From the IMG/VR virus record IMGVR_UViG_3300035034_002688: a stretch of DNA of 64,000 nt. One strand, given 5' to 3'. The notes under the pieces are model-generated. The model was not told where the DNA came from, did no database searches, and was given only the letters and a program-made list of their open reading frames with translations. Numbering within the stretch: position 1 is the stretch's first letter; every line of letters begins with the position of its first letter. Source of the DNA: an uncultured virus (IMG/VR IMGVR_UViG_3300035034_002688). Its lineage: Duplodnaviria > Heunggongvirae > Uroviricota > Caudoviricetes. Both the position numbers and the translations under genes were made by a program. Of the stretch, positions 5,036 through 64,000 are shown one piece after another.

Positions 5036-5850
5036 CAGGACACCTTGTAGAACATGAGATAGGATTGCAGCACCGTGGACTCAGCCGCCCCGGCCGAAGT
5101 CCCGAAGGAGAACTCGAAGGTGAAGCTGCCCACTCCCAAGTTCAGCAGTATGAACCCCGAGGCTGTGTGTACTTGATCGGTGCCTCCCACGCCGGTTCCC
5201 AACGAGTCTTTAGGCTCTTGACGGTGGAAGTAGCGGACTACGCCGCCTTCTTTGACTTGTGCGATGAAGTCGTTGCTCTGTGCGTCGTGGTTCCACAAGT
5301 ACGTGATGTCAAGGCGGTACACTCCCGCTACCGTGACGTTGCCCACGAGCGTGTCCCGGAGGAGGAGCCCGTCTTGTGCGTCGGCACCTACGGAATAGGT
5401 ATTCGTGACAGTCTGCACGGTCGTGTTGAAGACCGTCGCGAGGTCGGTGAACATCGAAGGCGCGAGCGCGTTGTCGATACCTGCGAGGTGCGCGGTCAGT
5501 TGCGTCGTGGTAGTGACTTCACCCGGCGTGACGTCACGTACGTAGTTGGCAGGGGTATAGTCGATCTCAAGCTGGTCGCCGTCAATGACATCTGTGCCGC
5601 CTTCGATGTGCGTGGGCGCATGCGGTGTGGGGGTCGCGCTGGAAGAGTCCCAACTGGTGTTGGTGATATCCCTCACGTAGAGCAGCATTTCATCGGTGCG
5701 AAAGAACAGCTCCCCCGCGAGCACGCCCGTAACCGGGAAGGCTGTACCTGAAGGGATGATGAGCCGTCCCCCGTTGTCTCGGTCGTACGCGATGATGCCC
5801 GTGATCGTACGGTCGGAGCCGTCATTGATTTCGATGAAGCTGTATTCCAT
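5035..5850 (-). CDS. Virion structural protein sharing C-terminal modules with the 1574-aa fibre
   Basis: HAPTHIEGGTDVIDGDQLEIDYTP and YLWNHDAQSNDF...QEPKDS...GGTDQ match the fibre C-terminus; stop/start overlaps. Confidence 0.7.
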   Translation of the reverse strand: MEYSFIEINDGSDRTITGIIAYDRDNGGRLIIPSGTAFPVTGVLAGELFFRTDEMLLYVRDITNTSWDSSSATPTPHAPTHIEGGTDVIDGDQLEIDYTPANYVRDVTPGEVTTTTQLTAHLAGIDNALAPSMFTDLATVFNTTVQTVTNTYSVGADAQDGLLLRDTLVGNVTVAGVYRLDITYLWNHDAQSNDFIAQVKEGGVVRYFHRQEPKDSLGTGVGGTDQVHTASGFILLNLGVGSFTFEFSFGTSAGAAESTVLQSYLMFYKVS

Positions 5851-8563: not shown

Positions 8564-8596
8564 GAGGTGTATCCTAGCTTGGAGAGATGTGCTCGC

Positions 8597-9523
8597 TCAG
8601 GTTGATGCGAGCTGTAGGTTGACCAGTACGTTTCGGAAAGTACTCTTCCCACTCCCACTTATCCTGACCACTTGTGCGGAGAGAGCGTCTCCCACATTGA
8701 GCGCGGCCCCTACCGATTGTACGAACTGTGTGGTCCCTGCCAGCAGGGGAACCGAGAACGTGGTCACATTGTTAATCAATACATCAACGGTATAATCCTT
8801 GGAATCGACGCGATCTACCGAAATAGAGAGCCCCACGATGCGCATATCAACCGGCGCAACCCATGGAGCAGCGGAAGTGGCCACCTTACCCACGCTCAAG
8901 AACTTCGTGCCGTATCCTGGGATGGCCGTGTGGCATCCGAAACTCACGATAGACGGCGCGCCTCCTCCCGTGACCACGCTCTCCAGTGTCGGACCCACGT
9001 AGCGGTAGACCGTCACATAGACCGAAGACACTCCAGCGGCTGCCCAGTTGTCGGTGGGCGTCGTGCCTCCCCAGATGAGAAGCCCCGCGAACGCGTGGAA
9101 GAACCAATTCGTGGGTCCAAACGCGGTCGTGATCTCGTCAGTTCCGGCAGCGTCGCGGTAGAAGCGAGGGAAGTAGCCTAGCCCGGAGCCGTCAAAAGGT
9201 GAGACCCAGTTTCCCAGGACCGTGGAGGAGGGGTCTCCTGGAGCGGCATACAGCCCATACGCGTTGCTATTGGTGCCGGGCACCAGCGTCATCTCACGTA
9301 GGGTCTCCTTCGCCACGACAGTAGGGTTGGCGGCCGCGTAGACGTCGGCTTGGGCCTGGGTGGTGGCGAAGTCGGGCTGAATGGCGCGGATGTCACGCCC
9401 ATACAAGATAGACTTCGCCGCAAACGGTTCCTGGAACCAGTTGCGTAGAGGGCTCGTGTGCGAGGTACCCGTTACAAAGGCCTTGAACGCCGCCTGAGCT
9501 TGAATGTCAATTGCCAGGGGCAT
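8597..9523 (-). CDS. Putative virion structural protein (308 aa)
   Basis: Co-oriented in structural cluster; C-terminal beta-rich domain similar to that of 7139..8563. Confidence 0.6.
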   Translation of the reverse strand: MPLAIDIQAQAAFKAFVTGTSHTSPLRNWFQEPFAAKSILYGRDIRAIQPDFATTQAQADVYAAANPTVVAKETLREMTLVPGTNSNAYGLYAAPGDPSSTVLGNWVSPFDGSGLGYFPRFYRDAAGTDEITTAFGPTNWFFHAFAGLLIWGGTTPTDNWAAAGVSSVYVTVYRYVGPTLESVVTGGGAPSIVSFGCHTAIPGYGTKFLSVGKVATSAAPWVAPVDMRIVGLSISVDRVDSKDYTVDVLINNVTTFSVPLLAGTTQFVQSVGAALNVGDALSAQVVRISGSGKSTFRNVLVNLQLAST

Positions 9524-25947: not shown

Positions 25948-25972
25948 CCCCTGATAAAGAGAGACGAACCCC

Positions 25973-28900
25973 ATGGCCAAAGATATCCAGGAGCTGATTG
26001 TATCGGTTGGCCAAAGGGGCATGGCTGACCTTGAGCGCACGTTCAAGAACCTGGACGGGGTGGTCGGCAACTCTTTGGAGGGTCTGTCTCGGTACAACCG
26101 CAAGCTCTCGGAGGACTCGTCCGCCGCTGAAACGCAAGTCAAGGCCATCCACAACACCTTGACGACCCTGGAGAGGGGCATCGCGAGCGCGGGCAAGGGC
26201 CTCTCGACGACCTTTGACGGGCGGCAGATCGCGCAGTTCGACACCAAGCTGCGTGGGATGCGTCGTCAGCTCGACAAGACCCGTGATGCGTTGGAGGGTG
26301 CAGCGCTCTCGGGAGATAAGGCGACCGAACGCGCCATGCGCACCCGCCTGGGTTCGATCCAGAAGACGATCGACGCTGAGGTCTCGGGGTTCAGCAAGCT
26401 CTACACGTCTCATCGTGAACAGTTCGAGCAGCTCTCCAAGCTCCAGAAGCGAGGCCTCGGCCAGAACGTGGCGGCGGGTGGTAAGGGTGCCGCGAACCTC
26501 ATCTCTCAGGTCAGCGGCGGGAACCTCAAGGGCGCAGCGGGTACTCTCGGACAGGCAGGCAAGGTTGGTTTCCAGAGCGCGCAGCGTCGTGCCTTTGCCG
26601 GTGCCGCTGGGGGCAGTGCCGGGGCCGCAGGACTCTCCAGTGCGCTCGGGGGGTTGGCCAAGATTGCAGGACCTCTCGCGGCCGTTGCGGCCGTCGTCGG
26701 ATCACTGGTCAAGGCCTTCCTCGACCTGGACGCCAAGGTCAAAGACGTCAACAAGTCGATGCTCAAGAACGTCCCCTTGACGAGCCTCGCCGCCGATGGC
26801 TTCAGCGACATGAACGACAAGATCGCAGACGGTGAGAACGCGCTGGCGGACTTCCGAAACACAGTCTTGACCGACGCCGACTTGCGCATGCTCGGGATGA
26901 CTCCCGAGATGATGGCATCCACGATGGCGGCCATCGAGGAGCAGGCGGGGGGTCTCAGTCAGCTCCGCCGTGAGGGCTTCTCGGCACGCGACGCGTTGGA
27001 GGCCGCCCAGATCGCGGCCCTCAACCTCGGCGTGGACTCCAACGAGACCATGGGTCTGGTGGGGCAGCTCATGGACGTCACCAGCGCGTCGACGGGAGAG
27101 GCTCTGTCTTCCTTGAGTCAGATCGTATCCACGGCGCAAGATGCCGGAGTCTCCACGCGCAAGTTCTTCCAGGTCGTCCAGGGCGTCGTGGGTGAGATGG
27201 GGCTCTACAACTACCGGCTCGAAGAGACCGCCGCGTTGTTCGGGAAGCTCACCACCATCATGGACTCCAAGTCCGCCGAGTCGTTCGCCACGAGCCTGTC
27301 TTCGGCCATCAAGAACGCCTCGGCCACGGACAGGACCCGTACCTCCTTGATCGTGGGCTCGAAGACGATGGGGGAGATGACCGATCGAGCACAGGCGGCG
27401 GCAGCCAGTGGCATCAACGAGGACGTCCTCGCCAACGCCATGCGCAAGCTCGGGCTTGGCGCTCAGTTCCAGTCGGGTAACGTCGCAGGTTCGATGGGCG
27501 GCTTGAGCGAGAGGCAGCGTCTGGCGGTGATGTCGGCGGTGTCTGATGAGGACCAGGGACAGGGAGAGCGTCTCCGAAAGTTCGAGAACCTGCGTGGCGT
27601 CAACCGTAACAACGCCATGGAAGTCCAGGGTGCTATGGGGGACTTCAACCAGTACGACCAGATGGCTACTAAAATCATGGAGCTTGAGAAGTCCCTGTCG
27701 ATGCCTCTCTCGCAAATGAACTCGGTACTTACGGAGGGTATGGGCACGAACGAAGATCAGCTTCGTATCTTCAAGACCATCCAGGGGGAAGGCAAAGGCG
27801 ACATGGCCCGGCTTCAGATGCTTCTTGAGAAGGGCGTCGGCGGGTCCGCCTTCTCGGAAGCGGCCAAGGAGATGGGATACATCGTCTCCGAGGAGAACGG
27901 CAAGATCCTGGACTCTCAGGGTAACGAGATCAAGTCGTTCAATCAGCTCTTCGCCACGATGGACGATGAGAAGGCCAAGGACCTACAGGAGAAGCAGAAG
28001 ACCCTTGCCGAGAAGCAGTCGGACCTCCAGCGCACCATGCTCGACACGATCAAGTTTCAGCTCATGGATTTGGTCCAGGGTATTTACACTACGATCCTGG
28101 ACATTTACGACGCGTTGGTCAATTCAAAGTTCTTCGGGGGCAGCCAGGAGTCTCGTGACCGTTCGGCCATGGTTCGTAAGGAGATGAAGACTCGGGACCA
28201 GATCCGAACGATAGATCAGGATCTGGGATTGGCCCGCGAGCAGGGAGATTCAGGACGAGTGCGTGAGCTGGAGGCTCAGAGAGAGGCACTCAAGTCCAGC
28301 CTTGATACGCAGCAACGGGCCCGAAGGCATCTCAAGAAGAGCGGCTCTTTGGGCATGGCAGGCGCGACGGCACTTGCGAGCGGAGATCCGGCAACCGGAG
28401 GCTTGAGCTACGAATACAGCGGAGGCATGGGTCGCCGCTTTGAAGAAGACGAGTATTCAGGCCTCACGATGGGCGACAGCAAGCTGACCGGTATTGTAAC
28501 CTCTTCCGGGAAACGAATCACCGGAGAGGATGCGATCAAGGCCTTCGTCGCGGAGCAGGAGAAGAATAAAAAAGCGGCGCAGGGAACAATCGGCTCTCTG
28601 ATTCAGAGCAAGGTTGATGACGGCGAGGAGCTGTATCCCGAGGACGCCAAGAATCTCGCGGAGAAGACCAACAACTTGCTGGAGAGTAAAGGGATTCTGC
28701 TCGCTCCGAAGACCATCAAGGATCTCACAGATGTTATGCTCCAGGCTCAGATCGACAAGCAGGTGGTCAGTGAGATCATGCGCACGACCGGCCGAAGCAA
28801 GGCAGACTCCGAGTTCCTGCTTGGCAAGTACAAGAGCGGTGATGAGGCTGCGATTAATCAGGTCGGCAAGGAAGGGAACCTCCAGGGTATCTTCGCCAAC

Positions 28901-29200
28901 TACGGCGTACAGACGGCGCGTGATGCTCGCATCGTAACGGGCGGGATTCCCCTGTTGGACCTCCAGCCGGGAGACATCGTGGTCGACCAGTCCATGCTGG
29001 CCAACGCCGTGGCGGGCGGTGCAGGTCAATTCGTCCCCGACCTTCTGCGTTCAGCCGGCAACAAGGCGGGGCCCAGCTCCTCGTCTGACAGCACGCTCAA
29101 TGCCAACTTCTACATCAACGGAGGCAACCCCGGTGAGATCCGCACCGAGATCATGCGCGTCCTTGAGCAGTGGCAGAACCTCGGAGCGTCGAGAGGCTGA
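25973..29200 (+). CDS. Tape measure protein (1075 aa)
   Basis: Long helical Ala/Gly/Met-rich protein with a central hydrophobic segment, directly upstream of tube-initiator-like genes. Confidence 0.8.
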   Translation: MAKDIQELIVSVGQRGMADLERTFKNLDGVVGNSLEGLSRYNRKLSEDSSAAETQVKAIHNTLTTLERGIASAGKGLSTTFDGRQIAQFDTKLRGMRRQLDKTRDALEGAALSGDKATERAMRTRLGSIQKTIDAEVSGFSKLYTSHREQFEQLSKLQKRGLGQNVAAGGKGAANLISQVSGGNLKGAAGTLGQAGKVGFQSAQRRAFAGAAGGSAGAAGLSSALGGLAKIAGPLAAVAAVVGSLVKAFLDLDAKVKDVNKSMLKNVPLTSLAADGFSDMNDKIADGENALADFRNTVLTDADLRMLGMTPEMMASTMAAIEEQAGGLSQLRREGFSARDALEAAQIAALNLGVDSNETMGLVGQLMDVTSASTGEALSSLSQIVSTAQDAGVSTRKFFQVVQGVVGEMGLYNYRLEETAALFGKLTTIMDSKSAESFATSLSSAIKNASATDRTRTSLIVGSKTMGEMTDRAQAAAASGINEDVLANAMRKLGLGAQFQSGNVAGSMGGLSERQRLAVMSAVSDEDQGQGERLRKFENLRGVNRNNAMEVQGAMGDFNQYDQMATKIMELEKSLSMPLSQMNSVLTEGMGTNEDQLRIFKTIQGEGKGDMARLQMLLEKGVGGSAFSEAAKEMGYIVSEENGKILDSQGNEIKSFNQLFATMDDEKAKDLQEKQKTLAEKQSDLQRTMLDTIKFQLMDLVQGIYTTILDIYDALVNSKFFGGSQESRDRSAMVRKEMKTRDQIRTIDQDLGLAREQGDSGRVRELEAQREALKSSLDTQQRARRHLKKSGSLGMAGATALASGDPATGGLSYEYSGGMGRRFEEDEYSGLTMGDSKLTGIVTSSGKRITGEDAIKAFVAEQEKNKKAAQGTIGSLIQSKVDDGEELYPEDAKNLAEKTNNLLESKGILLAPKTIKDLTDVMLQAQIDKQVVSEIMRTTGRSKADSEFLLGKYKSGDEAAINQVGKEGNLQGIFANYGVQTARDARIVTGGIPLLDLQPGDIVVDQSMLANAVAGGAGQFVPDLLRSAGNKAGPSSSSDSTLNANFYINGGNPGEIRTEIMRVLEQWQNLGASRG

Positions 29201-36636: not shown

Positions 36637-37283
36637 CCCCTCCCCGTGTACGCGGGGATGTCCCGTGCCTACCCTTGTCTACGAACGGGGCGCGGCCCCC
36701 CTCCCCGTGTACGCGGGGATGTCCCCCTTCGACGGTCACGACGACCATCGACACCAACCCCCTCCCCGTGTACGCGGGGATGTCCCCTACAACCTGGGCT
36801 CGGCTCGCTCCAGGCAAGCCCCCTCCCCGTGTACGCGGGGATGTCCCCACCCACATCACGACCTCGAAGGACTCGTTGGTCCCCTCCCCGTGTACGCGGG
36901 GATGTCCCCATGGCGTCTGTCATGGGCAACAGGATGGACTTCCCCTCCCCGTGTACGCGGGGATGTCCCCGGGTACGTGAGCGCCTTGGCGGAACCCTTC
37001 CCCGTGTACGCGGGGATGTTCCCCGTGTACGCGGGGATGTTCCCCATTACAGGGCGGCACACCCTAGGTTCATAACCCCTTCCCCGTACACGCGGGGATG
37101 TTCCCCAGACACCCCAGATCCACCTTGGCGTCCAGACCCCTTCCCCGTACACGCGGGGATGTTCCCCTCACACCGAACGAGCGAACGCCAATGTGCCCTT
37201 CCCCGTACACGCGGGGATGTTCCCACCATGCCTTTTTGGACATGCACTGATTGTCGCTTCCCCGTATACGCGGGGATGTTCCT
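36637..37283 (+). CRISPR. CRISPR array 1, type I-E-like, 12 repeat units and 10 spacers, no adjacent cas genes
   Basis: 29-nt repeats CCCCTCCCCGTGTACGCGGGGATGTCCCC at 36637, 36698, 36759, 36820, 36881, 36942 (61-bp period), then CCCTTCCCCGT(GT/AC)ACGCGGGGATGTTCCC at 36995, 37016 (overlapping), 37077, 37138, 37196 and degenerate 37255. Confidence 0.97.
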
Positions 37284-37670: not shown

Positions 37671-40600
37671 TCAGTCCGGATCGAGCAGGAATTCCAGCTC
37701 GTCAAGCAGGGTCGTGGTCTCCTGGAGATCGTCCTGATCCCGTGCGATGCGTGTCTGCTCCACCACATCCAGACCCGTAGCACGTTCGATCTTCTGCGTC
37801 AGGCTGACGCCTCCGATGGCGGAGAGGTCCTCGTCCTTCTCCAGACGTACGGCGACCACCTCCGGATCTTGAGCGGCGACTTGCCCCAGAGCGGTGGAGA
37901 GATCACGTCTCGCGCGGTCCAGCTTCAGGCGGGTATCTTCGGTCGCAGTGCGCGCCTCCGTGCCGAGCACCGATCCTAGCGTCTCTCCTGCGTCCAGGCG
38001 GCGGCGAATGTCCTCACGCCCAAAGATGCCTGTGTTTGCTCGACCCACCGGCTCCAGGTTCACCGTGTCGAGACCTCCAATGACGGGATTGGGAGGGGAG
38101 GTCGCGGGCGGGGTACGGTTCTCACCGCGTAGCTCGCGCTCTCGAATCGCACCCTGTTGGACGTCTCGCTCGTAGAGGTTGAGGAGGAAGCGGTTGAGCG
38201 CGTCGATGATCCCCGGATCACGGGGAGGGGTCAGGCCTTCCGGTAGCGTATTGACTCCGTTCTGGGCGTTGTCGTCGAGAGCTTCCGCGAAGCGGTTCAC
38301 TGAATCCTGCTCGTCTTCAATGACGTCCGGGAGCCCAACCGTGTTGACGCGGTTGGAGGCTTCAAGATCATTCGCCTCGTCACCTTGAAGAATGGCGGCC
38401 TCCGTGACCATGGGCTGCTCGGGCGTGACCACCATGCCGTCAGGTATCGGGAGCAAGGACTCAGCCCAGATCCCGCGCGCGGTCTCCTCATCTCCGATGT
38501 ACCCGTCAAGGTTCCAGGGCTTCTTGTTGGGCTTGTACTGTCGGGGGTACTCGGCTTGCCACTGGGCGATCTCGGCTGCGCTGGGGTTGGTCGCCAGGAA
38601 GCGGTTGTAGAGCGTCAGGCTTCCAGGACCTGCCTTCCAGAGGATGGCGATCTTGGTGGGATCGTTGCCGTGTCGGCCTTTGTACTTTTCGGCGTAGCGT
38701 AGGAAGTGCTCCAGGCTCTGGTCTGGCGCGTTCATGAAGTCGACGTTGGAGGTGTTGGTGCCGTCCCTCTTGTTGAACTCCTTCGCGTTGGTCTTGCCGA
38801 TCTGAACCAACCCGACAAACTGCGAGGGCTTCCCGTTCTTCTGCGTCCGTCTCGCATCGGCCTTACCCGAAGACTCGGTGTGGATGATCGCGAGCACCAA
38901 CTCATCGGGATAGGTCGCTTCGGAGTAGCCCAGCTTTTCGCGCGCCGCGCGGATGTTGGGGCGCCAACGGGCCACGTTCGAGTTGTACTTGAAGACGCGA
39001 CCTCGCGACGACTTTCTCACCGTCTTGTTGTTGACCGTGTACGAGTCCGAAGAGAGTGGGCTGGGCGCAGCGGTCGCCGGCACGGAGGAGGAAGCCCCCT
39101 GTGCGTTGGAGAACTGGAGCTGGGCGGAGAGCACGCGCGCGGCGAGCGTGGGGTCGGCCGAGATGTTGGGAGGTGCAAGCTCTGCGAGTCGTCGCCCGTA
39201 GTTGTTGGGGTCCAGCTTGAGCGCCTTGCCTCCCAGGTCTGCCTCATAGGCCGTGGCGAGGTTGTCGGAGATCTCATTTTCGGCGTTGGGCGTCGTCCTC
39301 CCTGGCTGCCCCAGGTCGTCGGGTGCGAGGTTGAGGAGCAGCTCCACGGCCGTGTTCAAGGGCGTCTGGTCAAAGCGGTAGCCTTGAGGGGTCGCCAGGA
39401 CACGGCGCCCGTACTCATAGGCTCCGATCACCTCATAGCCTCGCTCATCCGAGACCGGGAACACCACCGCGTTGACCGTGGCGGTCTCGGTGGTTCCTTC
39501 TGAGGTGGCCGTGATCTGTAGCTTGGGGTCGGACTCGATGTGAGTCACCGGACCTCGTGAGCGGTTGTTGGCCTCATCGGAGACGTAAGGGGTCTCCCGG
39601 TTCGGGTCAATGAGGTAGACGTAGCGGTTGTCTGTCGTGTTGCCAAACTGTGATCGCAGGTCGACCAAGTTACGCAGGCGGCGGTCCGAGTCAGTGGAGT
39701 CGTCCTCAAACGTGGGCACCACGTCACCGAACCTCTTGAAGTCCTTTTCGGGGAGGTAGGTCATCACCACGTTGCGGTCACCCAGGGGCCGCCCGTTGGG
39801 GTCTGTGGGTCGGGCCCCGATGTTTCTCGGGATGTCACCGGGGAGCGCCAGATCACCGGGCTTGGGCTCGGCCGCCTCGTCACGCCACCGCTCAAAGGCC
39901 CCGTAGAACTTCTGTCTGCGCGCGGAGAGGGTCAGGGACGTGGTACAGCGTGATCCATACCCGAAGCTGTGTGAGATGCCCTCCACGTAGTAGTACGCGT
40001 CCTTGCCCTCCACATAGACCGGGTACCCCAGGCGAAGCTCGGGTCGAAACGGGATCGTGACCGTGCCGCTGTTGATGCGCGCGTTCTGCTGATCCAGGAT
40101 GTCGACGAGGTGGTAGAAGAGCGCCTTGGGCCCTCCGTTCTCCTTGGACCCAATGAACTCGGAGCTGAACGCTCCTGGACGCCATCCGTACTTCTGGACG
40201 AGCCTGTAGTCGACGTACGTAGCCTTGGTCTGTGCCAGGGAGGAGAGCCCGACCTCGACGTTCTGTGTGTAGCGTCCCGTGGCCTCCACGAAGGTCGCTT
40301 CCGGAGGGTTCTCCGAAAAGTTCCAGGAGATCACGTCAACGTCTCGAATCCAACTCACGGGGAAATTCAGCCGGGTGTCCATGTTGAAGAACGGAGGCTT
40401 GAAGATGATCTCCCCCGTGACGTCCATGTAGAACTCGTAGTTGATCGCCTCCTTGGTCTGCAAGGCGAGGTTGAGCTTGTTCTCGAACTCACTGTTCTCG
40501 ATCTCTACCGCACCGAGCTGACTCAGCTTCTGGCTGAAGGGGGCGATGGCGCTCACGTCGAAGAAGTCCTGCTTGAAGGGCTCGTAGTCCTTGAGCTTGG

Positions 40601-41399
40601 TAGCCTTGGCGGACCCCTTGCGCTGGCGAAGGAAGAAGTCTCGGTTCTCGCCCGAGAGCACGCTCGCGAGCTGGCCACCCTGGAGGACGTTCCCGGAGGG
40701 GCCATACATCTTGATGTTCTGCGTGATCCGACCCCACTTGGCGCTCCAGTAGGCCATCATCCTCTTGGTGTCCGCTCCCGAGATCGGCTCGGTACGGGCT
40801 TCGCGGTTTGGGACCGACTGATTACGCACGTTCATCGAGTCCCCATACACGTAGCGTGAGAGGCTGTAGATGATGTCGAAGGCGTTCATGCCCGTGAACG
40901 TGTGTCCTCGCAGGTTGACCTGTTGGGTCTGGTCCTTCAAGGTCGCCAGATACGACGGGTTGATGTTGATCTGCGAGACCTGCCACCAGTACAGGATGTC
41001 CGAACAGCTCAAGCTGACCGTCTGCTCGCCGGCCGAGTAGCTCTCCTGCAAGCTCGTGACGACGCCCCAGAAGATCGGGTAGTACCGTGGCGATCCGCCC
41101 ACCGAGAAGTGACCCTTGGCGTAGATCTGGACCTCCATCATCGTGGTCAACGTGAGCTGACCCCCCACATAGATGTCACCCAGGTAATGTGCCGGGATGT
41201 GCAGGTCAATGGAGGCGCTGCCGGGCACCGAGTTGACCCCCAGGTTGACCGAGATCGTGTTGATCAACGGCTGCAAAGGCACGCGTCGGTTCGGGTTGGC
41301 TCCGCTTGGGAGGCTCAGCTCTCCGTTGATGTAGACCAGACAGTCTGGCGCCGTGGTGACGACGGGGCGGCGGTTTGGCTTGTAGGTCCCTTGGTACAC
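37671..41399 (-). CDS. Baseplate hub-like protein with SLT lytic transglycosylase domain (1242 aa)
   Basis: N-half gp27/GPD-like (PIFWGVV, YEFYMD..GEIIFKPPF, VTIPFRPELRLGYPV...YYYVEGISHSF); SLT motifs LAIIHTESSG, GLVQI, WKAGPG. Confidence 0.8.
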   Translation of the reverse strand: MYQGTYKPNRRPVVTTAPDCLVYINGELSLPSGANPNRRVPLQPLINTISVNLGVNSVPGSASIDLHIPAHYLGDIYVGGQLTLTTMMEVQIYAKGHFSVGGSPRYYPIFWGVVTSLQESYSAGEQTVSLSCSDILYWWQVSQININPSYLATLKDQTQQVNLRGHTFTGMNAFDIIYSLSRYVYGDSMNVRNQSVPNREARTEPISGADTKRMMAYWSAKWGRITQNIKMYGPSGNVLQGGQLASVLSGENRDFFLRQRKGSAKATKLKDYEPFKQDFFDVSAIAPFSQKLSQLGAVEIENSEFENKLNLALQTKEAINYEFYMDVTGEIIFKPPFFNMDTRLNFPVSWIRDVDVISWNFSENPPEATFVEATGRYTQNVEVGLSSLAQTKATYVDYRLVQKYGWRPGAFSSEFIGSKENGGPKALFYHLVDILDQQNARINSGTVTIPFRPELRLGYPVYVEGKDAYYYVEGISHSFGYGSRCTTSLTLSARRQKFYGAFERWRDEAAEPKPGDLALPGDIPRNIGARPTDPNGRPLGDRNVVMTYLPEKDFKRFGDVVPTFEDDSTDSDRRLRNLVDLRSQFGNTTDNRYVYLIDPNRETPYVSDEANNRSRGPVTHIESDPKLQITATSEGTTETATVNAVVFPVSDERGYEVIGAYEYGRRVLATPQGYRFDQTPLNTAVELLLNLAPDDLGQPGRTTPNAENEISDNLATAYEADLGGKALKLDPNNYGRRLAELAPPNISADPTLAARVLSAQLQFSNAQGASSSVPATAAPSPLSSDSYTVNNKTVRKSSRGRVFKYNSNVARWRPNIRAAREKLGYSEATYPDELVLAIIHTESSGKADARRTQKNGKPSQFVGLVQIGKTNAKEFNKRDGTNTSNVDFMNAPDQSLEHFLRYAEKYKGRHGNDPTKIAILWKAGPGSLTLYNRFLATNPSAAEIAQWQAEYPRQYKPNKKPWNLDGYIGDEETARGIWAESLLPIPDGMVVTPEQPMVTEAAILQGDEANDLEASNRVNTVGLPDVIEDEQDSVNRFAEALDDNAQNGVNTLPEGLTPPRDPGIIDALNRFLLNLYERDVQQGAIRERELRGENRTPPATSPPNPVIGGLDTVNLEPVGRANTGIFGREDIRRRLDAGETLGSVLGTEARTATEDTRLKLDRARRDLSTALGQVAAQDPEVVAVRLEKDEDLSAIGGVSLTQKIERATGLDVVEQTRIARDQDDLQETTTLLDELEFLLDPD

Positions 41400-41508: not shown

Positions 41509-41647
41509 GTACCACAGAGTAAGAGTTGGTAAAGTAAAACGGCGAACCTCATGCTAACAGGATTCCCCTTATGAATCAAGGAGTTAGGTACACTTCCGAA
41601 GGCTTGAACATTTGAAGAGTGTTCCCCGCGCGAGCGGGGAAGTTCCT
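41509..41647 (+). CRISPR. Duplicated array-2 leader plus a solitary type I-E repeat
   Basis: 41583-41630 is identical over 48 nt to the reverse complement of the array-2 leader/repeat junction; 41526-41542 is identical to revcomp 62482-62498; single repeat GTGTTCCCCGCGCGAGCGGGGAAGTTCCT at 41619-41647; IHF consensus match AATCAAGGAGTTA at 41574-41586. Confidence 0.9.
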
Positions 41648-49801: not shown

Positions 49802-52800
49802 ATGACAGGCGACTTCAACGGCTGGGTGCTTCGTAAGCCACGGGTAGCAGCTTCCAACGCCAACACCACCGCTGAACCTGATGTCGTCGTGCGCGAGCAG
49901 GATGAGGCCGCGTATCGCGCCTCCTACCTCGACAACGTGAGCGCTACGGGGTCGGAGTACCTCGTCCGTACTGCACAGACCGGTGACCTCGTGGTCCCCT
50001 CGTCGATCACCGAGATTGCGAGCCCCTTTGATGGCTCCTTGCCGACCGCGCTCGTCTTCACGTTCAACACGCAGGGTCGCGCCGTCGCTGCGCCCGTGCT
50101 CCCCGCAGATGTGACGCCCCTTCCGGACAGCGTGGACACGTCTGCCGGCCTGATCACCTATCTGGTCGCCCCTGGTGTGGCACCCACCGTCACCTTTGTA
50201 CCTGCACCCCTGTCTGTCGAGTACACCCGCAACGACTCGGGGCGTACGCGCTTTGGATACGATGCGCGCGTGTCCCGTTGGGAGACCCTCCCCGGAGGCT
50301 CACCCGAGTCCCTCGGTCTGGTGCCTGAAACCGGCCTCCTCACGCTCCCTCTCGTTGAAGCTGATGCAGCGGGCGCGCCGGCCCCTCCTCGCGTCCTGCT
50401 TGGCAATCCGGACCGTCTGTTGGGGACCCTCGTGGACGTCACACAGCTCCTGGGTGAAGACGCGTTCGCGGATTACCGTGATGGCATCCTTGACCCTGCG
50501 TCTGGAGAAGGGGCGCTGAACGTGGAGACGGGGGAGCTTCGACTCGCCCCGTCCTTGACGGTAGGATTCGAGGCTCAGGAGGCCTTCTTTACCCGGCGCA
50601 ACTTCTTCGCCTTTGATGCGTCAACGGGACGCGTCGGGATCATCGGAGAGGACCTCCTCTTGAACCCGTTGCCCCTGGTCGGAGAGGAGCCCCTGCTTCG
50701 CGTAGGGTACGGCTCGTATCTAAACGCGTCCGTAGGGGCGGGCTCTCCGGTGGGCAGCGAGCAGGCACGTGTTGATCCGCTCACGGGTCGAGTCAACTTG
50801 AGCGCGGCTCTTGAGGCTCAATCAGAGGGCTTAGCTCTCTACTACGATGGGGTTCTTACGGGGACCGCGACGCCTCAGGCTCCTACAGTGCTCGGAGACC
50901 TCCTCTCCAACCAATCGGGCCTCTCCAATGTGGACCTCCTGGAGTACGAGCCGGAGGCGCTGGTGCTCTATATCGAACAGACCGGGGAGGCGGTGCGCGA
51001 GCTGGAGTTCGTGGCCGACCCGTCGGACTTCACTGAGGCGCGCAACCTCCCTCCCACGAAGGCGCAGGTCGCCCGGTCAGATGGGTCCGTTCGCTTGAGC
51101 CAGCGTTTCGTTTCGGCCAACCTCTCGCGTGATCTTGTGGCGGGCTCCACGGACCTCACGCTCGAACGTGGGCTGACGTTTCGGATGGGCCGATCACCCC
51201 TTGACCCAACCAACGCAGCCGGGCTCCCGGACGGCCAAGGCGTCTTGCGCCTGGAAGATGAGCTGCTGGGCCCCGTTCGCAGTGGGCCTTCCGCGTTCCT
51301 GACTCAGGTGCCCCTGGTCGACGTCGCAGGTTATGCGGCAGACACCTTTTACCGTCTGGGGAGCGGGGCCCAACGGCGCGTACTCGTCCCGGATGAGGAG
51401 GTGATCTATGATTTTGATACCCGTCAGCTCCTGTGGGCCCAGCGTCGTACCACCTCACAGACGATCTCTCAGCGCACGTTCTCCGTACGCGTCCCGGATC
51501 AGGTCCTGCTCAACCGTAACTACAGCTTCGAGCTGAACCGGGGCAGCGGCTTTGAGGCCCTGGAGGATGGCGTCAACGCCTCCGTGGACTTCGACATTGG
51601 GGAGATCCGCTTCACCCAGACGCAGGGTGAGGTTCTGATTGAAGACGTCGCGACCGTGGCGGGACAGGAGTTCACGTTCTTGACCGAGGACCTCTCCGGG
51701 GTCGTCATTTCGCTGGTGGACCTTGACCGGCCCCTGCTTCGTACAGGCCTGAACGCCTACACGATCACGGGCATCGCGGGTAGCGTGGTGACCGTGGAGG
51801 GGGACGTCCAGGAGAGCGGCTCCGTCGCTGTCGAGATCATCTCCGCGCCCGAGCCCGTGTACGCGTACGCGCTCGCGCAGGTGAACCTCAACCCGGACAT
51901 CGTGGCGGCGTTCCTGGTCCGCGAGGTGGACAGCTCCGGGACCGTCTACGCTCCGGGGACCACAGGAGAGGTCTATGCGGTCTCGGGCGGAGTCCGTCGT
52001 GATGTCGTACGGCTCGCCTCAACCGTTCTCGGAGAGGCACAGGATGCCTTGACGCTTCCTGCGTTTGCACAGGGGGCCGAGGCTGTCTTTGAGATCTACC
52101 TTGGGAGTGATCTCCTGGTAGAGGTCGGCGGGACGCCCAACCAGGGTGAGTACCGCATCATGGGCGTGGACTTGGTGCTCTCCTCGGCGGACGTGCTGGC
52201 CAACCCCAAAGAGCTGGTTACGCTGGACCCGAGCCTGAGCACGGCGCGCGCGACCGGGGACGTGGAGCTGCTGGTCGCTACCCGCGAGCTGGGGTTCCCT
52301 CTTGACCTCGCAGTCGTAGACCTCTACGTACAGGTCGAGGCGCGTATCCAGGACCGCCTCCTCTACTTCTCCCAGCCTTTCGCTGCGGGAGATCGCCTGA
52401 GGGCGCGCTACCGTACCGCTGATGAGGTTGAGGTGGAGGAAGAGGTAGGCTTTCGCGTCGTGGAGGATGCCGTGATCGTGAGCGCGACCGAGGCGACCTA
52501 CGGGGCTGGACGCCTCCTCGACCCGAACCGCGCTCCTATCATACTCGTCAATGGAGCACGCACAGACCTCCCGGTAGATCCGGTGGCGGGCACCATCAAC
52601 ACCAGCTCGGTTCGTACGGGGCGCACGATCAGCGTGAGCTACGCCGCACTCGATGCCAAGGGTGGGGAACAGACCGCGAGCCTTCTCCAGACGCCCGTGT
52701 CTCCTGATGTGGTGTTCGCTCCTGGGACCAGCCAGACCTTGCGCGGTGATCAGACCGACGACCTCTTCCTGGGTGCGTTTGTCCAGGCGGGCTCAACGAG

Positions 52801-55800
52801 CTTCACCGTGGCGAGCGTGCCGACCTATGATGGAACGCAAACCACCTTCGAGGTCGAGCCTTCGCTCCCTCAAGAGGTACGCAATCCGATCACTCTTGTC
52901 AGCGGGACGGTGTTTGACTTCGAGGTACTCCCCACGCTTGCCTTTGATGCCCCCGTGCAGGGCTCGACAACCTTGCGCGTCTTCTCAGACGTGACAGGCC
53001 TCCTCAAGGCGCAGCGGGTGCTCGTGCTCGACTCGGACGCTTACTACGTCACCGACGTCACCTTCGACGGTGGCCAGACTGTCCTCTCCTTGGCGAGCCC
53101 GCTCGCGCGCGCATACAGCTCTCCCCTGGCGTCTCAGTCCGTGTTTACGGTGTATGGCCCCGGTGCTCAGGTCCTGTTGACCGAGAAGACGGGACTCGAC
53201 GGAGGCCTCGTTGAGGTGATCCGCCGCGCCGCAAATGGAGACCTTACGGTAGTAGATCCCTCGACCTACCTGTTTGAGCCTGCGGGTCGTCTCACTCTGG
53301 ACCCTACCCTGACGGCTCCGCTGTCTCGGGGAGAGGTGGTCTTCTTGCGGTACACCGCGCTCGATCCGGTAGGCCCCACGACTCTTGGGGGACAGCTCTT
53401 CTTGCCTCGCTTCCGTGGGACCTACACGCAACGGGTCAACGCCTCCGAGACCAATGGCTACCTGGGGTCGAACCTGTACGTGAGCGCGACCTTGCGCGCG
53501 CCTGACACCTTCTACTTTCGCGTCCTCCCTCTCGCGGAATGGTCCGAGGAGGTCGCTCAAGGCTTGACGACCTCTTCAGGCACGGGCCCCGTGGTCTCTT
53601 CGTTCGCGACGACGCCCCTGTCAGATCAAGGTATCCAGACCCTGGTTGGGGAAGGGGGAGACCTCTACGATACCGACCGCGCCGCGCGTCGCTACCTTTC
53701 GTTCTACAATGACCTCGTGACCGCCTTCGAGAACGTCCAGGAGGTCCTGGATGGTCGAGTGATCGGAGACCGTGACGGCAAGTTCCGCTTCACCGTCCGT
53801 GCAGACTCGACCCCTGGAGGTGAGGACCCGATCACGGGACGCCTGCTTCCCTACTACATCAACCCGGCCAACCCTGGAGTGCGTCCGACGAGCGTTCAGA
53901 TCGGGGACACGGGAGACCTGACCTTGCAGACCGGGCTCGTCCAGAACAACCTCGACGACATCCTGCTCACCTCCAAGCGCCCCTTCTCCCTGAACATCCT
54001 CGGGTTCACGATCGACTACACAGGCACGTTCAAGCGTGCCTGGGAGCCCTCACGCCTCTCGCGTCTCTACCCCGAAGAGTCCACGGTCCAGACGATCACG
54101 GTGCCCCCTCTTGGCGGAGGCGGCAGCTACACGTTTGGAGACGATGGCGGGCAGATCCTGGCAGACTCGGGCGTCACGGGGGTCCTGGCGATCAAGGGTA
54201 TCCGTCCGCGCGGGTCCGCCGCCACGGTTACGAAGGTGACGCCCGGAGATCCGCTCGTGCTGTCTTGCGCGCAGACCTATGACCCGATCACAGGCGACCT
54301 CTCCAACGCTCCCTATGACCTCACCACAGGTGACCCCTCGCGCGCGCGCCCGCCGTTTGAAGTAGGTAGCCGGGTCGACATAGGCCGGGTCGTCTTTAGC
54401 CGAAACGGTGAGGATGTCACGAGGACCGAGGTGCTCGTGGCTCGGGACTTGGTGGTCGACTCGGTGACCGCTTCAACTCTTGAGCTGGTCGAGGGTGCAG
54501 GCACGGCAATCGGTTCGGTAAATACACGAGCGGGAGATACGGTGTACGAGGCTACGCCTCTGGACCTCCCCGGAGTCGCAGACTTGGCATCGCTCGACCC
54601 GGCCGACATGCCCTTCTACCGCAACCCACTGGACGTGACCCTGGACGGAGCGACTGGAGAAGTCATTAACCCGACCCTACCCGGATTCTTTGCGACCTTG
54701 CTCGGTCAGAAGGTGCCTCCTCCCGGCACTCTGCTCGATCTGACCGTGAGCTACCAGAATACGAACACGTCTCCTCGTCGTCCTCCCGCTCTTGATGGAG
54801 GTGCGGCCAATGACGATGGGGACCTCAGCGTCCCGTTCGTCTCTCCAATGCCGGACTCGGAGCTGTCTCGTCTGCCTGCCGAGCTGGCTGCGATCACGAC
54901 GCTACTCTCCAACACGGAGCCCGGCGTCTACGTGTCCGCGGCGACGCGTCTCTCGGCCACGACCCTCTCGACGTCTCTGGACCTCACTGGCCTTGGAGTG
55001 GGAGTCCAGGGGTTCACCCTCCTTGAAGGTTCTCCTGTGGTCTACTCCTCTTCGGAGGTGCCGGGACCCAACGTCTTGACCCTGGCAGCGTTTGAGTATG
55101 AGGACCTGACGGCTCCCTTTGAGGTGCCTGACCTCTTCGCGGGTTCTGGTACCGTAGCGGGCGCGGTCCTTACCGACGCGGGCACGGACTTCACCGCGTT
55201 CTCGGGAGCGACGATCACCCTCAATATTGACGGCGGAGCCTCTTACCCGGTGAGCGTGCTCTCCAACGGGTCTCTTACGGCTACGGGCGTGATCGCGGAG
55301 ACGGGCGCGCAAAGCTACACGTTGAGTGCGAGCGGGGTAGGCTCCATCTCCACGGACTTGACCACTCTGGAGGCTCCTGGAGTTGACTTCACCTCGGCGT
55401 CCGGGCCCTTCACCGTCGCACGTCCGTTCAATGGCGGCCTCTCTCCCATCACCTTCCTCGTGGGAGAGGGCTCAGACGGATCTCTCGTGCCAGACCTCAT
55501 CCCTTCAGGCTTCAACGGACCGTTGGCAGTGGGTCCACTGGTGCCGGTAGCCTCAGGGACCGCTCAGGTGTCTGTCACAAACGTGCTCAGTACCCTGGAC
55601 TCCCTGGCATCTGTGGCTCCAGGAGACACGCTCATCATTGCCTCTTCGTCTCCCAACGCTGGCCGCTACCGGGTGGGTGCAGTAGGCGCGACGACGTTGA
55701 CCCTGGATGTGGGAGCGGACGCGAGCATCTGGAACACCTTCTTCTGGGACAATGAGGGCGGAGGCATCACTTACCCTGTGGACTACACGGTCGTGCGTCC

Positions 55801-56635
55801 TCGCCGCTACAGCGTGGAGATGGAAGACTACCGCGAGGAGCTGGCACGTCAGCGGGTGATCTATGAGGACAACGCCAACGCGCCGGCTGACATCATTGGC
55901 TTCCTCACGGCGACGTCTTCCAACCCCGCCACGCCCTTGAAAGAGCGGCTGGACGCTCTTGACGCCCTCCTGTTGCCGGCTCCTTTCCTTACGCTTACCG
56001 GCGTGGCGGAGACGGGCGCGCAGACCTTGACCGGTGGCGTGGACTTCGTGGTGGAGGGGGTGGAGACGGGAGACCTCGTGCGCGTGGACGCGGGTATCAA
56101 TCGAGGCTTCTACTTCGTCACTGGAGTCTCCAGCGCAGCGATCACCCTGGACGGCTCGAACCCTTACGTCACCTACACGCTGAGCAACGACGGCGCTACG
56201 GACTACACGGTCACCAAGGCGGAGGGGTTCCAGGACCTCACGTACCAGCTCGTGCTCTCGGAGATCTACGGACTTGACCAACGCATCGAGCGTCTGGACG
56301 CGGGTATCCGAGGGGTCGACACGGACACGGACGACCTTCTGGGAGTGCTTCCGTACGGTAGCCTGACAGGAGACTACACCGACGACACCCTCACGGCCCA
56401 CCAGACGCAAGCTCAGGCGAGGTTGGACCGTCTACAGGTGGTTCCCACGCTTGCTCAGGACATCGAAGGCATCTTGAAGGGGTCTGAGGCCCTGTATGAT
56501 ACGCGGTATGCCTGGGTAGACTATCGCGCGAACCTTGAAACAGGTACCCTGCCAAGAATCCGTCGATACCTTGCTACGGTAGACAAAGAGAAGGAGCGAC
56601 GCTTGAGGGAACTCACTCGCGCCGGTTCAACTTGA
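49802..56635 (+). CDS. Very large virion structural protein, probably baseplate wedge-like (2277 aa)
   Basis: Uninterrupted 6.8-kb ORF; beta-rich acidic composition; within the baseplate region. Confidence 0.65.
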   Translation: MTGDFNGWVLRKPRVAASNANTTAEPDVVVREQDEAAYRASYLDNVSATGSEYLVRTAQTGDLVVPSSITEIASPFDGSLPTALVFTFNTQGRAVAAPVLPADVTPLPDSVDTSAGLITYLVAPGVAPTVTFVPAPLSVEYTRNDSGRTRFGYDARVSRWETLPGGSPESLGLVPETGLLTLPLVEADAAGAPAPPRVLLGNPDRLLGTLVDVTQLLGEDAFADYRDGILDPASGEGALNVETGELRLAPSLTVGFEAQEAFFTRRNFFAFDASTGRVGIIGEDLLLNPLPLVGEEPLLRVGYGSYLNASVGAGSPVGSEQARVDPLTGRVNLSAALEAQSEGLALYYDGVLTGTATPQAPTVLGDLLSNQSGLSNVDLLEYEPEALVLYIEQTGEAVRELEFVADPSDFTEARNLPPTKAQVARSDGSVRLSQRFVSANLSRDLVAGSTDLTLERGLTFRMGRSPLDPTNAAGLPDGQGVLRLEDELLGPVRSGPSAFLTQVPLVDVAGYAADTFYRLGSGAQRRVLVPDEEVIYDFDTRQLLWAQRRTTSQTISQRTFSVRVPDQVLLNRNYSFELNRGSGFEALEDGVNASVDFDIGEIRFTQTQGEVLIEDVATVAGQEFTFLTEDLSGVVISLVDLDRPLLRTGLNAYTITGIAGSVVTVEGDVQESGSVAVEIISAPEPVYAYALAQVNLNPDIVAAFLVREVDSSGTVYAPGTTGEVYAVSGGVRRDVVRLASTVLGEAQDALTLPAFAQGAEAVFEIYLGSDLLVEVGGTPNQGEYRIMGVDLVLSSADVLANPKELVTLDPSLSTARATGDVELLVATRELGFPLDLAVVDLYVQVEARIQDRLLYFSQPFAAGDRLRARYRTADEVEVEEEVGFRVVEDAVIVSATEATYGAGRLLDPNRAPIILVNGARTDLPVDPVAGTINTSSVRTGRTISVSYAALDAKGGEQTASLLQTPVSPDVVFAPGTSQTLRGDQTDDLFLGAFVQAGSTSFTVASVPTYDGTQTTFEVEPSLPQEVRNPITLVSGTVFDFEVLPTLAFDAPVQGSTTLRVFSDVTGLLKAQRVLVLDSDAYYVTDVTFDGGQTVLSLASPLARAYSSPLASQSVFTVYGPGAQVLLTEKTGLDGGLVEVIRRAANGDLTVVDPSTYLFEPAGRLTLDPTLTAPLSRGEVVFLRYTALDPVGPTTLGGQLFLPRFRGTYTQRVNASETNGYLGSNLYVSATLRAPDTFYFRVLPLAEWSEEVAQGLTTSSGTGPVVSSFATTPLSDQGIQTLVGEGGDLYDTDRAARRYLSFYNDLVTAFENVQEVLDGRVIGDRDGKFRFTVRADSTPGGEDPITGRLLPYYINPANPGVRPTSVQIGDTGDLTLQTGLVQNNLDDILLTSKRPFSLNILGFTIDYTGTFKRAWEPSRLSRLYPEESTVQTITVPPLGGGGSYTFGDDGGQILADSGVTGVLAIKGIRPRGSAATVTKVTPGDPLVLSCAQTYDPITGDLSNAPYDLTTGDPSRARPPFEVGSRVDIGRVVFSRNGEDVTRTEVLVARDLVVDSVTASTLELVEGAGTAIGSVNTRAGDTVYEATPLDLPGVADLASLDPADMPFYRNPLDVTLDGATGEVINPTLPGFFATLLGQKVPPPGTLLDLTVSYQNTNTSPRRPPALDGGAANDDGDLSVPFVSPMPDSELSRLPAELAAITTLLSNTEPGVYVSAATRLSATTLSTSLDLTGLGVGVQGFTLLEGSPVVYSSSEVPGPNVLTLAAFEYEDLTAPFEVPDLFAGSGTVAGAVLTDAGTDFTAFSGATITLNIDGGASYPVSVLSNGSLTATGVIAETGAQSYTLSASGVGSISTDLTTLEAPGVDFTSASGPFTVARPFNGGLSPITFLVGEGSDGSLVPDLIPSGFNGPLAVGPLVPVASGTAQVSVTNVLSTLDSLASVAPGDTLIIASSSPNAGRYRVGAVGATTLTLDVGADASIWNTFFWDNEGGGITYPVDYTVVRPRRYSVEMEDYREELARQRVIYEDNANAPADIIGFLTATSSNPATPLKERLDALDALLLPAPFLTLTGVAETGAQTLTGGVDFVVEGVETGDLVRVDAGINRGFYFVTGVSSAAITLDGSNPYVTYTLSNDGATDYTVTKAEGFQDLTYQLVLSEIYGLDQRIERLDAGIRGVDTDTDDLLGVLPYGSLTGDYTDDTLTAHQTQAQARLDRLQVVPTLAQDIEGILKGSEALYDTRYAWVDYRANLETGTLPRIRRYLATVDKEKERRLRELTRAGST

Positions 56636-61949: not shown

Positions 61950-62405
61950 TGGGACATCCCCGCGTGCGCGGGGAACACGCTCCCCTTCGATACAGAGATC
62001 TTCTTTCTACCGGGACATCCCCGCGCACGCGGGGAACACGGGTAGAACAAGAAGATGTATGAGAGGGGATCCGGGACATCCCCGCGCACGCGGGGAACAC
62101 CGGACGAGCATGGGGAGACGTATTCGCCCTACCGGGACATCCCCGCGCACGCGGGGAACACTTGAAGCTGGAAGGATGCACGAGATGTGCGTGCGGGACA
62201 TCCCCGCGCACGCGGGGAACACACAGGTGTGATCACAAGAGCATGTCGCCTCATCGGGACATCCCCGCGCACGCGGGGAACACGTCAAAGCTGGTCACCT
62301 TTGGAGCGTGAACGGCGGGACATCCCCGCGCACGCGGGGAACACCATGACACCGACACACCCGCACTTGGTGCATCCGGGACATCCCCGCGCACGCGGGG
62401 AACAC
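61950..62405 (-). CRISPR. CRISPR array 2, type I-E, 8 repeats and 7 spacers of 32 nt
   Basis: Repeat GTGTTCCCCGCGTGCGCGGGGATGTCCCG (minus strand) at plus-strand starts 61950 (variant, terminal), 62011, 62072, 62133, 62194, 62255, 62316, 62377; exact 61-bp period. Confidence 0.98.
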
Positions 62406-62515
62406 TCTTCAAATGTTCAAGCCTTCGGAAGTGTACCTAACCCCCTGTATTCGCTCAGGAATTCTGTTGGCATGGGGTACACCGTTTTACTTTACCAAAT
62501 CGTACCCTGCGGTAC
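62406..62515 (-). promoter_or_regulatory. Leader of CRISPR array 2
   Basis: AT-richer non-coding stretch between the cas gene stop and the first repeat; homologous to 41509-41618. Confidence 0.85.
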
Positions 62516-62524
62516 AAGCCTGAA

Positions 62525-64000
62525 TCAGGAGGCCTTCTTGGTGGGGGCGCGGTAGTAGGTGCGCGTCCACTCCATCTGCGTCTGAGAGCCCCAGGTGAGG
62601 AGGCTCAGGATGAGGTCGTTGGCGTCGGCACCCTGACCCTCAATGCGTCCGAGGACGTTGCGGAGCTGGCGCCAGTGGCCGTTCAAGGTGCCTCCCGAAC
62701 ACAGGCGCTCGAACGAGCGCTCCTTGATGTCACGAGACTGCGCGAGGACGCGCGCGACGGGGCGGTTGCCCTTGAAGCCGGTGGGCTTGAGGCCCGCGAG
62801 CAGGACCGCCAGGAGGAACACGCGCTCCTGCAACTCGGGGGCGTTCTCACCAAGGTTACGCTCCACCACCTTCTCCAGGGCCTTCTCCAGCAGGATGGCG
62901 GGGCGCATGTAGCGTACGTCCTGGAGGTTCTTGGCGCGAGAGAGCGCGACGCGGCCGGAGCCCTTGTCGTGGTGGAGGTTGCGCCACCACTTGTGGACCA
63001 CGGAGAGGATCTCATCCTTGTGGGCGTATACGATGTTGTTCATGGGGTTCTTCTCTCTCTTGGTGGAGGTGCCGCAGAGTTTGAGGAGCTGCTTTTCGAG
63101 CCCGGCTCGTTCCCTCACGGCGGATGTGATGGTGCGGGTGTTCATGCGCGATTTGCGAGTGACACGGCCTCCAACGAGGGAGTCGAAGATCGTGAGCGCG
63201 GTGGTCGCGAGGAGGCGCTTGTAGGGCGTATAGACCATCTCCTCAAGCTCCTCCCGGTTGGTCGTGAGCTTGACCTTGGCGAGCGCGTCGTATGCAGCCT
63301 GTTCGGTGTGTGACCACAGCTCGGAGTTGTTCCGGCCTCCCAGGCAGGCGACCTTCGCGCGGAGCACCTTATCCACCTCGGACGTGAGCTTGACCAGCGC
63401 CCCGAAGGTGTCCTCATCACGCAGAGCCTGTGAGCCCTCGAAGATGAAGATGTACTTCTCGAAGAAGCTCACCGTCTTGCCCGCAAACATGTTGAATCCG
63501 AAGACACGCAGCGGGGGAAGCCCTCCCCATACCTCATCCCAATGCTCCGCGACCTCATCGTACAGGAAGGCCTTGCGCTTGGTGTGGGTGATGATTGGGG
63601 GCGTGTGGAGGGTCTCGGAGTAGGCGTGGGAACCCAGAACGTTCCACGTGCGCCTGTTGGTGACGGTCTGCACAGCGCGGACATCTTTCACATCTTTGGG
63701 GGTCCACTTGCCGTTGACGCCCATCGTCTTGAGGTTCTTGAGGGTGGTGGCGTTGTTGGGGAGCTGCCAGACACCCGACATGGGGATGCACTGACGAGAC
63801 CCCGGCAGACCTTCCCACTTCTCGGACTGCGCTGTGTAGCGCTGCCGGTTGCCCCAGGGCTGCGCATCCACGTAGTCCAGGAGCCCGTCCTCATCCGGCT
63901 CCGGCAGGACCCACTCACGCGTGAGGTGCCAGAACGCGGTCAAGGGGTGGTAGTCCAGGTCGTGAGCGCGCCACCCCTCGATCTGACTCTCTTCGACCCA
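62525..64000 (-). CDS. Cas8e (Cse1)-Cas11 (Cse2) fusion protein, 5' end beyond the window
   Basis: Frame is open to 64000. Cse1-like motifs HPLTAFWHLTREWVL, LRVFGFNM..K, LWSHTEQAAYDAL, ALTIFD. Last 172 aa are Cse2-like (WWRNL...GRVALSRA...SFERL...QLRNVL...LLTWG...EWTRTYY). Adjacent to a I-E array. Confidence 0.8.
   Translation of the reverse strand, partial: WVEESQIEGWRAHDLDYHPLTAFWHLTREWVLPEPDEDGLLDYVDAQPWGNRQRYTAQSEKWEGLPGSRQCIPMSGVWQLPNNATTLKNLKTMGVNGKWTPKDVKDVRAVQTVTNRRTWNVLGSHAYSETLHTPPIITHTKRKAFLYDEVAEHWDEVWGGLPPLRVFGFNMFAGKTVSFFEKYIFIFEGSQALRDEDTFGALVKLTSEVDKVLRAKVACLGGRNNSELWSHTEQAAYDALAKVKLTTNREELEEMVYTPYKRLLATTALTIFDSLVGGRVTRKSRMNTRTITSAVRERAGLEKQLLKLCGTSTKREKNPMNNIVYAHKDEILSVVHKWWRNLHHDKGSGRVALSRAKNLQDVRYMRPAILLEKALEKVVERNLGENAPELQERVFLLAVLLAGLKPTGFKGNRPVARVLAQSRDIKERSFERLCSGGTLNGHWRQLRNVLGRIEGQGADANDLILSLLTWGSQTQMEWTRTYYRAPTKKAS

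Follow-up and report, generated by a model that had tools for sequence, protein, structure and literature searches.

Does a gene that joins the large subunit of a type I-E Cascade to the small one also deliver the small subunit on its own? Type I-E is the textbook case of a separate cas11 gene, the canonical order in E. coli and T. fusca being cas3-cse1-cse2-cas7-cas5-cas6e-cas1-cas2; in types I-B, I-C and I-D, to our knowledge, the large-subunit gene has always appeared "fused". The locus considered here lies at one end of a 64,000-nucleotide stretch of viral DNA (the whole of which is called the window in what follows), and in it cas8e and cas11 form a single reading frame with an in-frame ATG at the junction. 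The original prediction was that this ATG may be a hidden start from which free Cas11 is made. Internal translation of this kind is plausible and moderately supported by the comparisons set out below, the judgement being an even one.

The prediction leaned on two precedents, and both are borne out by the sources cited: the type I-E Cascade contains six Cas7 and two Cas11 subunits (PMC11127173), and the Cas11 of types I-B, I-C and I-D is translated internally, from within cas10d, cas8b and cas8c, behind a GA-rich stretch similar to a ribosome-binding site (RBS) (bioRxiv 10.1101/2020.04.18.045682; O'Brien et al. 2020, PMC7684278). A Cas11 fused to the large subunit has been proposed to nucleate the minor filament (McBride et al. 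2020, bioRxiv 10.1101/2020.04.18.045682).

The fusion gene and its junction

There is no doubt that cas8e and cas11 (cse1 and cse2) are truly fused in this gene. Its 3' two-thirds (residues 245-735; 62525..64000, minus strand), recognised by PF09481, TIGR02548 and Foldseek, run from the window edge at 64000, which cuts the gene, to a TGA stop at 62527-62525 (minus). The 5' start lies beyond the window end and is found in G001 (locus L009), a 125-kb IMG/VR viral record whose bases 1-50133 match window positions 13868-64000 at 99.986% identity, and in which the frame has its full size of 735 aa (protein P0002). The same 735-aa frame is present on a 365,960-bp metagenome contig, and the longest contig in the protein's cluster record measures 373,477 bp; the element in the window is thus a huge phage. 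G001 is 27% complete. The searchable DNA of this phage comes to 139 kb of at least 366 kb. Its DNA sources are lake-water metagenomes. The contigs of three lake-water DNA runs showed no junction variants, megablast against phage GenBank returned zero matches, and a metagenome scan turned up, apart from one N-terminal Cse1 match, just a contig of 100% identity. The relative used for comparison at the DNA level is G002, a phage genome of 437,490 bp that has terminal repeats and is estimated to be 100% complete; its fusion locus is L011. Elsewhere in the window, a plus-strand ORF of 2277 aa (49802-56635) is without any Pfam or PHROG match.

The Cse1 part of the protein matches PF09481 (CRISPR_Cse1) over residues 4-500 (E 1.6e-18); against TIGR02547 it scores 41.6 bits, below the 70-bit cut-off, and the Cas8e part is therefore divergent. 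The Cse2 part (residues 579-729) matches NCBIfam TIGR02548 (casB_cse2) at 38-39.1 bits, against a cut-off of 28.5 bits (E 8e-10). Foldseek pairs the Cas8e part best with the Cse1 of E. coli Cascade (4u7u_M; E 3e-15, TMt 0.74) and also with the Cse1 of T. fusca and T. thermophilus; for the Cas11 part it gives Cse2 chains from E. coli and T. thermophilus, 4tvx_J (TMt 0.66) and 2zca_A.

In an AF2 model derived from a 65-row alignment (mean pLDDT 79.5, pTM 0.75), the Cas8e part ends in a four-helix bundle (codons 440-553; 63074..63415, minus; helices 440-463, 472-487, 493-526 and 532-553), the last helix being separated by a nine-residue loop (codons 554-562, the TSTKREKNP region; 63047..63073, minus) from the first Cas11 helix, which begins at residue 563. 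The in-frame ATG, codon M564 (63041..63043, minus), is the candidate internal start codon, and the model places it exactly at the boundary of the Cas11 domain. The prediction had this ATG, at 63043, opening a Cse2-like domain, and so it does (MNNIVYAHKDE): the TIGR02548 match begins just after the Met, and the Foldseek matches to this part are Cse2 chains. The Met stands 18 residues before a conserved WW motif, and five aligned free Cse2 proteins begin 15-22 residues ahead of it. The 172 codons from the ATG to the stop, a length also given correctly, make a nested ORF (62525..63043, minus) for a putative free Cas11 of 172 aa plus stop, the same as the C-terminus of the fusion and covered by the same Cse2 matches. 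The 18 bases directly 5' of the ATG (63061-63044) read AAGAGAGAGAAGAACCCC; this purine-rich tract (63044..63061, minus), although not a canonical Shine-Dalgarno (SD) sequence, is the candidate ribosome-loading region. A predicted complex of residues 436-735 (bundle plus Cas11) with free Cas11 (564-735) scored 0.00, a value that counts neither way on binding.

The start context of the internal ATG

The context was ranked among the 395 internal in-frame ATGs of 130 ORFs in the 139 kb of the window phage, the ORFs having been crudely called (longest ORF, greedy). With an extended anti-SD tail the tract pairs at -6.7 kcal and ranks 63/395 (top 16%); with the core anti-SD CACCUCCU it ranks 187/395, about the median, as against 149/374 for the site in G002. 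The anti-SD motif is an assumed one and may differ from that of the host. As evidence for an internal start, SD strength by itself was rejected. Of the RBS that had been claimed for this site, the purine-rich and open context stands, but the tract is not a canonical SD sequence, and its rank depends on the anti-SD that is assumed.

The openness of the mRNA is a robust signal. Positions -25 to +25 around the ATG fold at -1.6 kcal, compared with means of -12.8 kcal for internal ATGs and -7.3 kcal for gene starts (42 ATG starts); the site is the least structured of the 395 at every window size tried, is more weakly structured than all 42 gene starts, and comes first or second of the 395 when openness is combined with SD pairing (extended anti-SD). 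Within the fusion gene itself, a 50-nt window centred on the site ranks 4/760. The starts of cas3, cas7 and cas8e carry equally weak GAGAG-type tracts in more structured surroundings (SD/fold values of -4.2/-7.3, -4.5/-4.2 and -3.0/-5.8, respectively, against -6.7/-1.6 at the internal site). The DNA-level comparison of contexts covers two fusions, those of the window phage and G002. The orthologous ATG in G002 is M553, and its context, ACCAAGAAGGACGCC-ATG, is again purine-rich and unstructured: it ranks 3/363 for openness, 4/363 for the combined measure, and 3-13/374 across window sizes.

The principal rival explanation is that only the full-length fusion is made, that the Met is a bequest of the ancestral cse2 start, that the open context is a by-product of the linker, and that a single tethered Cas11 suffices for function. 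It is a possibility to be taken seriously, though we doubt it. The composition of the linker speaks for it: the segment is rich in Lys, Arg and Glu, so purine-rich codons follow from the peptide, and when the peptide is held fixed and its codons are redrawn from phage usage, the mean fold is already -6.2 kcal. Most of the low structure is a consequence of the amino acids of the charged linker, and the ordinary SD rank with the core anti-SD also fits a by-product. Codon choice nevertheless adds signal. Relative to synonymous resamples, the window phage has a fold P of 0.022 and a joint P with SD of 0.006; in G002 the corresponding values are 0.10 for fold, 0.60 for SD and 0.04 jointly, a weak signal at the codon level. 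Nor does a by-product account readily for the most open of 395 internal ATGs having an orthologue that falls in the top 1-3% in G002.

The original prediction had also likened this context to the start of the phage's tape-measure gene. The likeness holds: AAGAGAGACGAACCCCATG, at 25957-25975 (plus), matches the internal site at 17 of 19 positions, and with two mismatches of 19 allowed, 0.00 such matches are expected in 100 shuffles. The tape-measure label is unconfirmed, the 1075-aa ORF that AAGAGAGACGAACCCCATG opens (25957-29200, plus) having no Pfam or PHROG hit. A separate ORF of 1242 aa (37671-41399, minus) gives weak matches to families of tape-measure and baseplate-hub proteins.

Rarity and age of the fusion, and conservation of the Met

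When 1.84 billion cluster representatives were searched exhaustively with phmmer (E <= 0.001), 70 hits came back, among which full-length fusions come from just three other clusters: P0003 (726 aa, E 2.5e-67), P0004 (718 aa, E 9.8e-51) and P0007 (688 aa), the rest being ordinary Cse1 (~500 aa) or free Cse2 (~170 aa). The 90%-identity cluster of P0003 has four members, one of them encoded in G002. P0002 and P0003 are ~30% identical, and the fusion lineages compared are 27-30% identical. A quick maximum-likelihood tree was built for the Cas8e part from 60 of the alignment's 65 rows, five with <300 residues in the Cas8e columns being left out. It groups P0002 and P0004 with the P0003 cluster in one clade (SH-aLRT 96), whose terminal branches measure ~2 substitutions per site, and it nests P0007 among ordinary Cse1 proteins; long branches meet in this tree, as the program warned. 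Taken at face value, the quick tree would mean that fusion happened independently at least twice and that the megaphage event is ancient. The alternative offered with the original prediction, a relic of a recent gene fusion, is weakened, because the fusion predates lineages that are 27-30% identical; an inherited Met stays a rival, if a doubtful one.

Searches aimed at further examples added little. In 401 sampled Actinomycetota genomes, Cse2 matches number 19, spread over 17 genomes, and not one lies in an open frame of at least 600 aa; bacterial genome contigs scanned with P0007 gave 28 ordinary Cse1 loci and no fusion; viral contigs scanned with P0004, P0007 and a C-terminal alignment gave no new loci; and P0002, P0003 and the fusion alignment, used as queries in word-indexed homologue searches, retrieved nothing beyond themselves. 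Two loci from the P0007 scan of genome contigs, L038 and L048, have long open frames that extend upstream in high-GC DNA. One full-text literature library yielded no report of a natural Cas8e-Cas11 fusion, a result whose scope is that library.

Of the 14 Mets in P0002, M564 alone aligns with a Met in P0003, and this junction Met is kept in 4/4 proteins of the P0003 90%-identity cluster. In P0004, of the same clade, the column is occupied by Ser, with the nearest Met 11 residues upstream, and in the independent fusion P0007 the linker is of the Pro/Ala kind and the junction lacks a Met; both are judged at the protein level. The conservation that the original prediction looked for in homologous fusions is accordingly partial, the Met being retained in the P0003 cluster and the context in G002, but the Met being absent from P0004 and P0007. 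P0007, which has the same two-domain architecture as P0002 but joins its domains through a Pro/Ala-rich linker with no Met near the junction, and which has a strong canonical Cse1 score (187 bits), would be a natural control for the question of whether such fusions need an internal start.

The Cse1-bearing open frame ends in ATGA in 14 of the 28 bacterial loci, the next ORF being only presumed to be cse2; with such an overlap, a one-base frameshift would put a Met in frame at the junction, downstream of the old RBS. A fusion by frameshift would naturally leave this mark, which favours the by-product explanation, as does the lack of Met in the P0004 and P0007 column. What a frameshift at ATGA would explain, however, is the origin of the site and not its persistence: the fusion is old, and yet the single internal Met that is conserved between P0002 and P0003 is this one. 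On these sequence comparisons it may well be, with the chances about level, that the huge-phage lineage has kept the old cse2 start alive within the fusion for a very long time, converging on the one-gene-two-subunits design of types I-B, I-C and I-D.

Two proposed products from one message

A second Cas11 would have a place to go. Downstream of the fusion stop, a leader-like spacer of ~120 nt extends to the first repeat (62406..62524, minus; a copy with 85% identity is present in the window) and is followed by a CRISPR array of eight I-E-type repeats with a 61-nt period (61950..62405, minus) in the same orientation as the cas genes, the repeats having been typed against what we take to be the I-E consensus. 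The 61-nt repeat-spacer unit matches the canonical I-E crRNA, thereby implying two Cas11 positions, which argues against a by-product. The sole Cse2 match in the complete G002 genome, and likewise in G001, is inside the fused frame; no stand-alone cas11 was found in complete G002 or in the searchable 139 kb of the window phage (at least 366 kb). On the other side, E. coli Cas11 is reported to be dispensable for silencing and plasmid interference (PMC12235044), so that a Cascade with one Cas11 might suffice.

If free Cas11 is made by internal translation, the fusion gene would be read twice, giving two products from one mRNA. Initiation at the 5' ATG would produce the 735-aa fusion, composed of the Cas8e body, the four-helix bundle, the nine-residue loop and a single tethered Cas11; ribosomes that load on the open purine-rich stretch at codons 555-563 and start at M564 would produce the free 172-aa Cas11. 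Tethered and free Cas11 together would fill both Cas11 positions of a six-Cas7 Cascade on the 61-nt crRNA, the fusion supplying the tethered, nucleating copy and internal initiation adding the second at a fixed ratio. The logic would be the same as in types I-B, I-C and I-D with their nested cas11. Initiation at M564 and the joining of free Cas11 to Cascade are the steps that we infer.

Three further explanations do less well. The first, which we consider improbable, is that the rare codons AGA and GTA, with the SD-like tract, slow elongation and let Cas8e fold before Cas11 emerges, no initiation being involved. Both codons are right at the domain boundary: AGA, the rarest Arg codon (4.5% of the 2346 Arg codons counted across the phage's ORFs; 2 of the fusion gene's 57), is codon 559, in the loop, and GTA, also rare, is codon 568. 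The G002 junction, however, is without a comparably rare Arg codon, and a pause leaves unexplained both the conservation of the Met and the openness downstream of the ATG in two lineages. Scarcely more credible, and if anything slightly less so, is that free Cas11 arises by some other route: from an internal promoter, by proteolysis of the linker, or as a Cas11 of the host or of phage DNA outside the sample. The search of the window phage did cover just 139 kb of at least 366 kb, which leaves room for such a gene; but positions 62400-64000 contain no match to a sigma-70-like promoter, cleavage cannot raise the ratio of Cas11 to Cas8e above one, and complete G002 lacks a second Cse2 match. That an assembly or sequencing artefact has joined two genes is exceedingly unlikely, since nothing was found to support it, the 735-aa frame is identical in G001 and the 365,960-bp contig, with its 3' part in the window, and full-length homologous fusions exist in other records.

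Relation to nested cas11 genes

Free Cas11 from M564, if made, would be the known Cas11 mechanism in a new setting, a type I-E fusion. Like the cas11 genes nested in types I-B, I-C and I-D, the locus encodes its small-subunit domain at the large-subunit gene's 3' end, has an in-frame ATG where that domain starts, behind a GA-rich tract, and has two Cas11 positions to fill with no separate cas11 gene (a statement that is complete only for G002). In contrast to the nested systems, the Cas8e here comes with a four-helix bundle of its own, and what is appended to it can be recognised as Cse2 (TIGR02548), which indicates that the architecture arose secondarily, by fusing two I-E genes. The free small protein is here a putative one.

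Were internal initiation to occur, the nested design would appear as a repeatedly selected way of setting the ratio of large to small subunits, and the idea of McBride et al., in which the minor filament is nucleated by a tethered Cas11, would gain support. There would be a practical side as well: recoding the genes of compact, phage-borne, adaptation-free I-E systems would cost them the second Cas11. Were it not to occur, the locus would show instead that one tethered Cas11 is enough for an I-E Cascade to function.

The surrounding module

In G001 the operon runs on one strand in the order cas3-cas7-cas6e-cas5-cas8e::cas11, followed by the leader and the array; the gene order in G002 is identical, and the same Cas families are recognised there. 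The cas3 product (876 aa) has HD, helicase and C-terminal domains (PF18019, 2.7e-27; PF22590, 3.1e-26), and the other products match PF09344 (Cas7e, 448 aa, 5.6e-58), PF09704 (Cas5, 9.4e-34) and PF08798 (Cas6e, 4.3e-22). Neither Cas1 (PF01867) nor I-E Cas2 (PF09707) was matched in G001 (27% complete) or in complete G002. All five Cascade families and Cas3 are thus recognisable, and the repeat is I-E-like with a 61-nt unit, as in canonical I-E; unlike canonical I-E, the locus has cse1 and cse2 fused rather than separate and in canonical order with cas1-cas2, arranges its genes differently, has no cas1 or cas2 that was found, and is carried by a huge phage. Judged by its gene content, the system is an interference-only, type I-E-derived module with a non-canonical gene order. 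New spacers would have to come from other sources, because neither phage record has a Cas1 or Cas2 match.

The Cas7e homologue (L009 4491-5837, minus, outside the window) is long, at 448 aa, and its counterpart in G002 has 496 aa; an insertion at about residues 150-185, acidic and then Lys-rich, is absent from typical CT1975-family Cas7 proteins. A second leader-like copy lies at 41509-41646 (plus) in the window, 85% identical to 62412-62515. The leader-like sequence is followed by a single I-E repeat at 41619-41641 (plus), with the ATG of a small ORF ~45 nt further on, and another lone repeat is found at 37016-37038 (plus); these may be solitary units with a regulatory or processing role. In G002 (L011), short arrays with a 61-nt period are placed in the gap between cas7 and cas6e, in the gap between cas6e and cas5, and after cas8e::cas11 (3697-4031, 4804-5182 and 8206-8716); with arrays between its cas genes, processing by Cas6e would cut the operon transcript into pieces.
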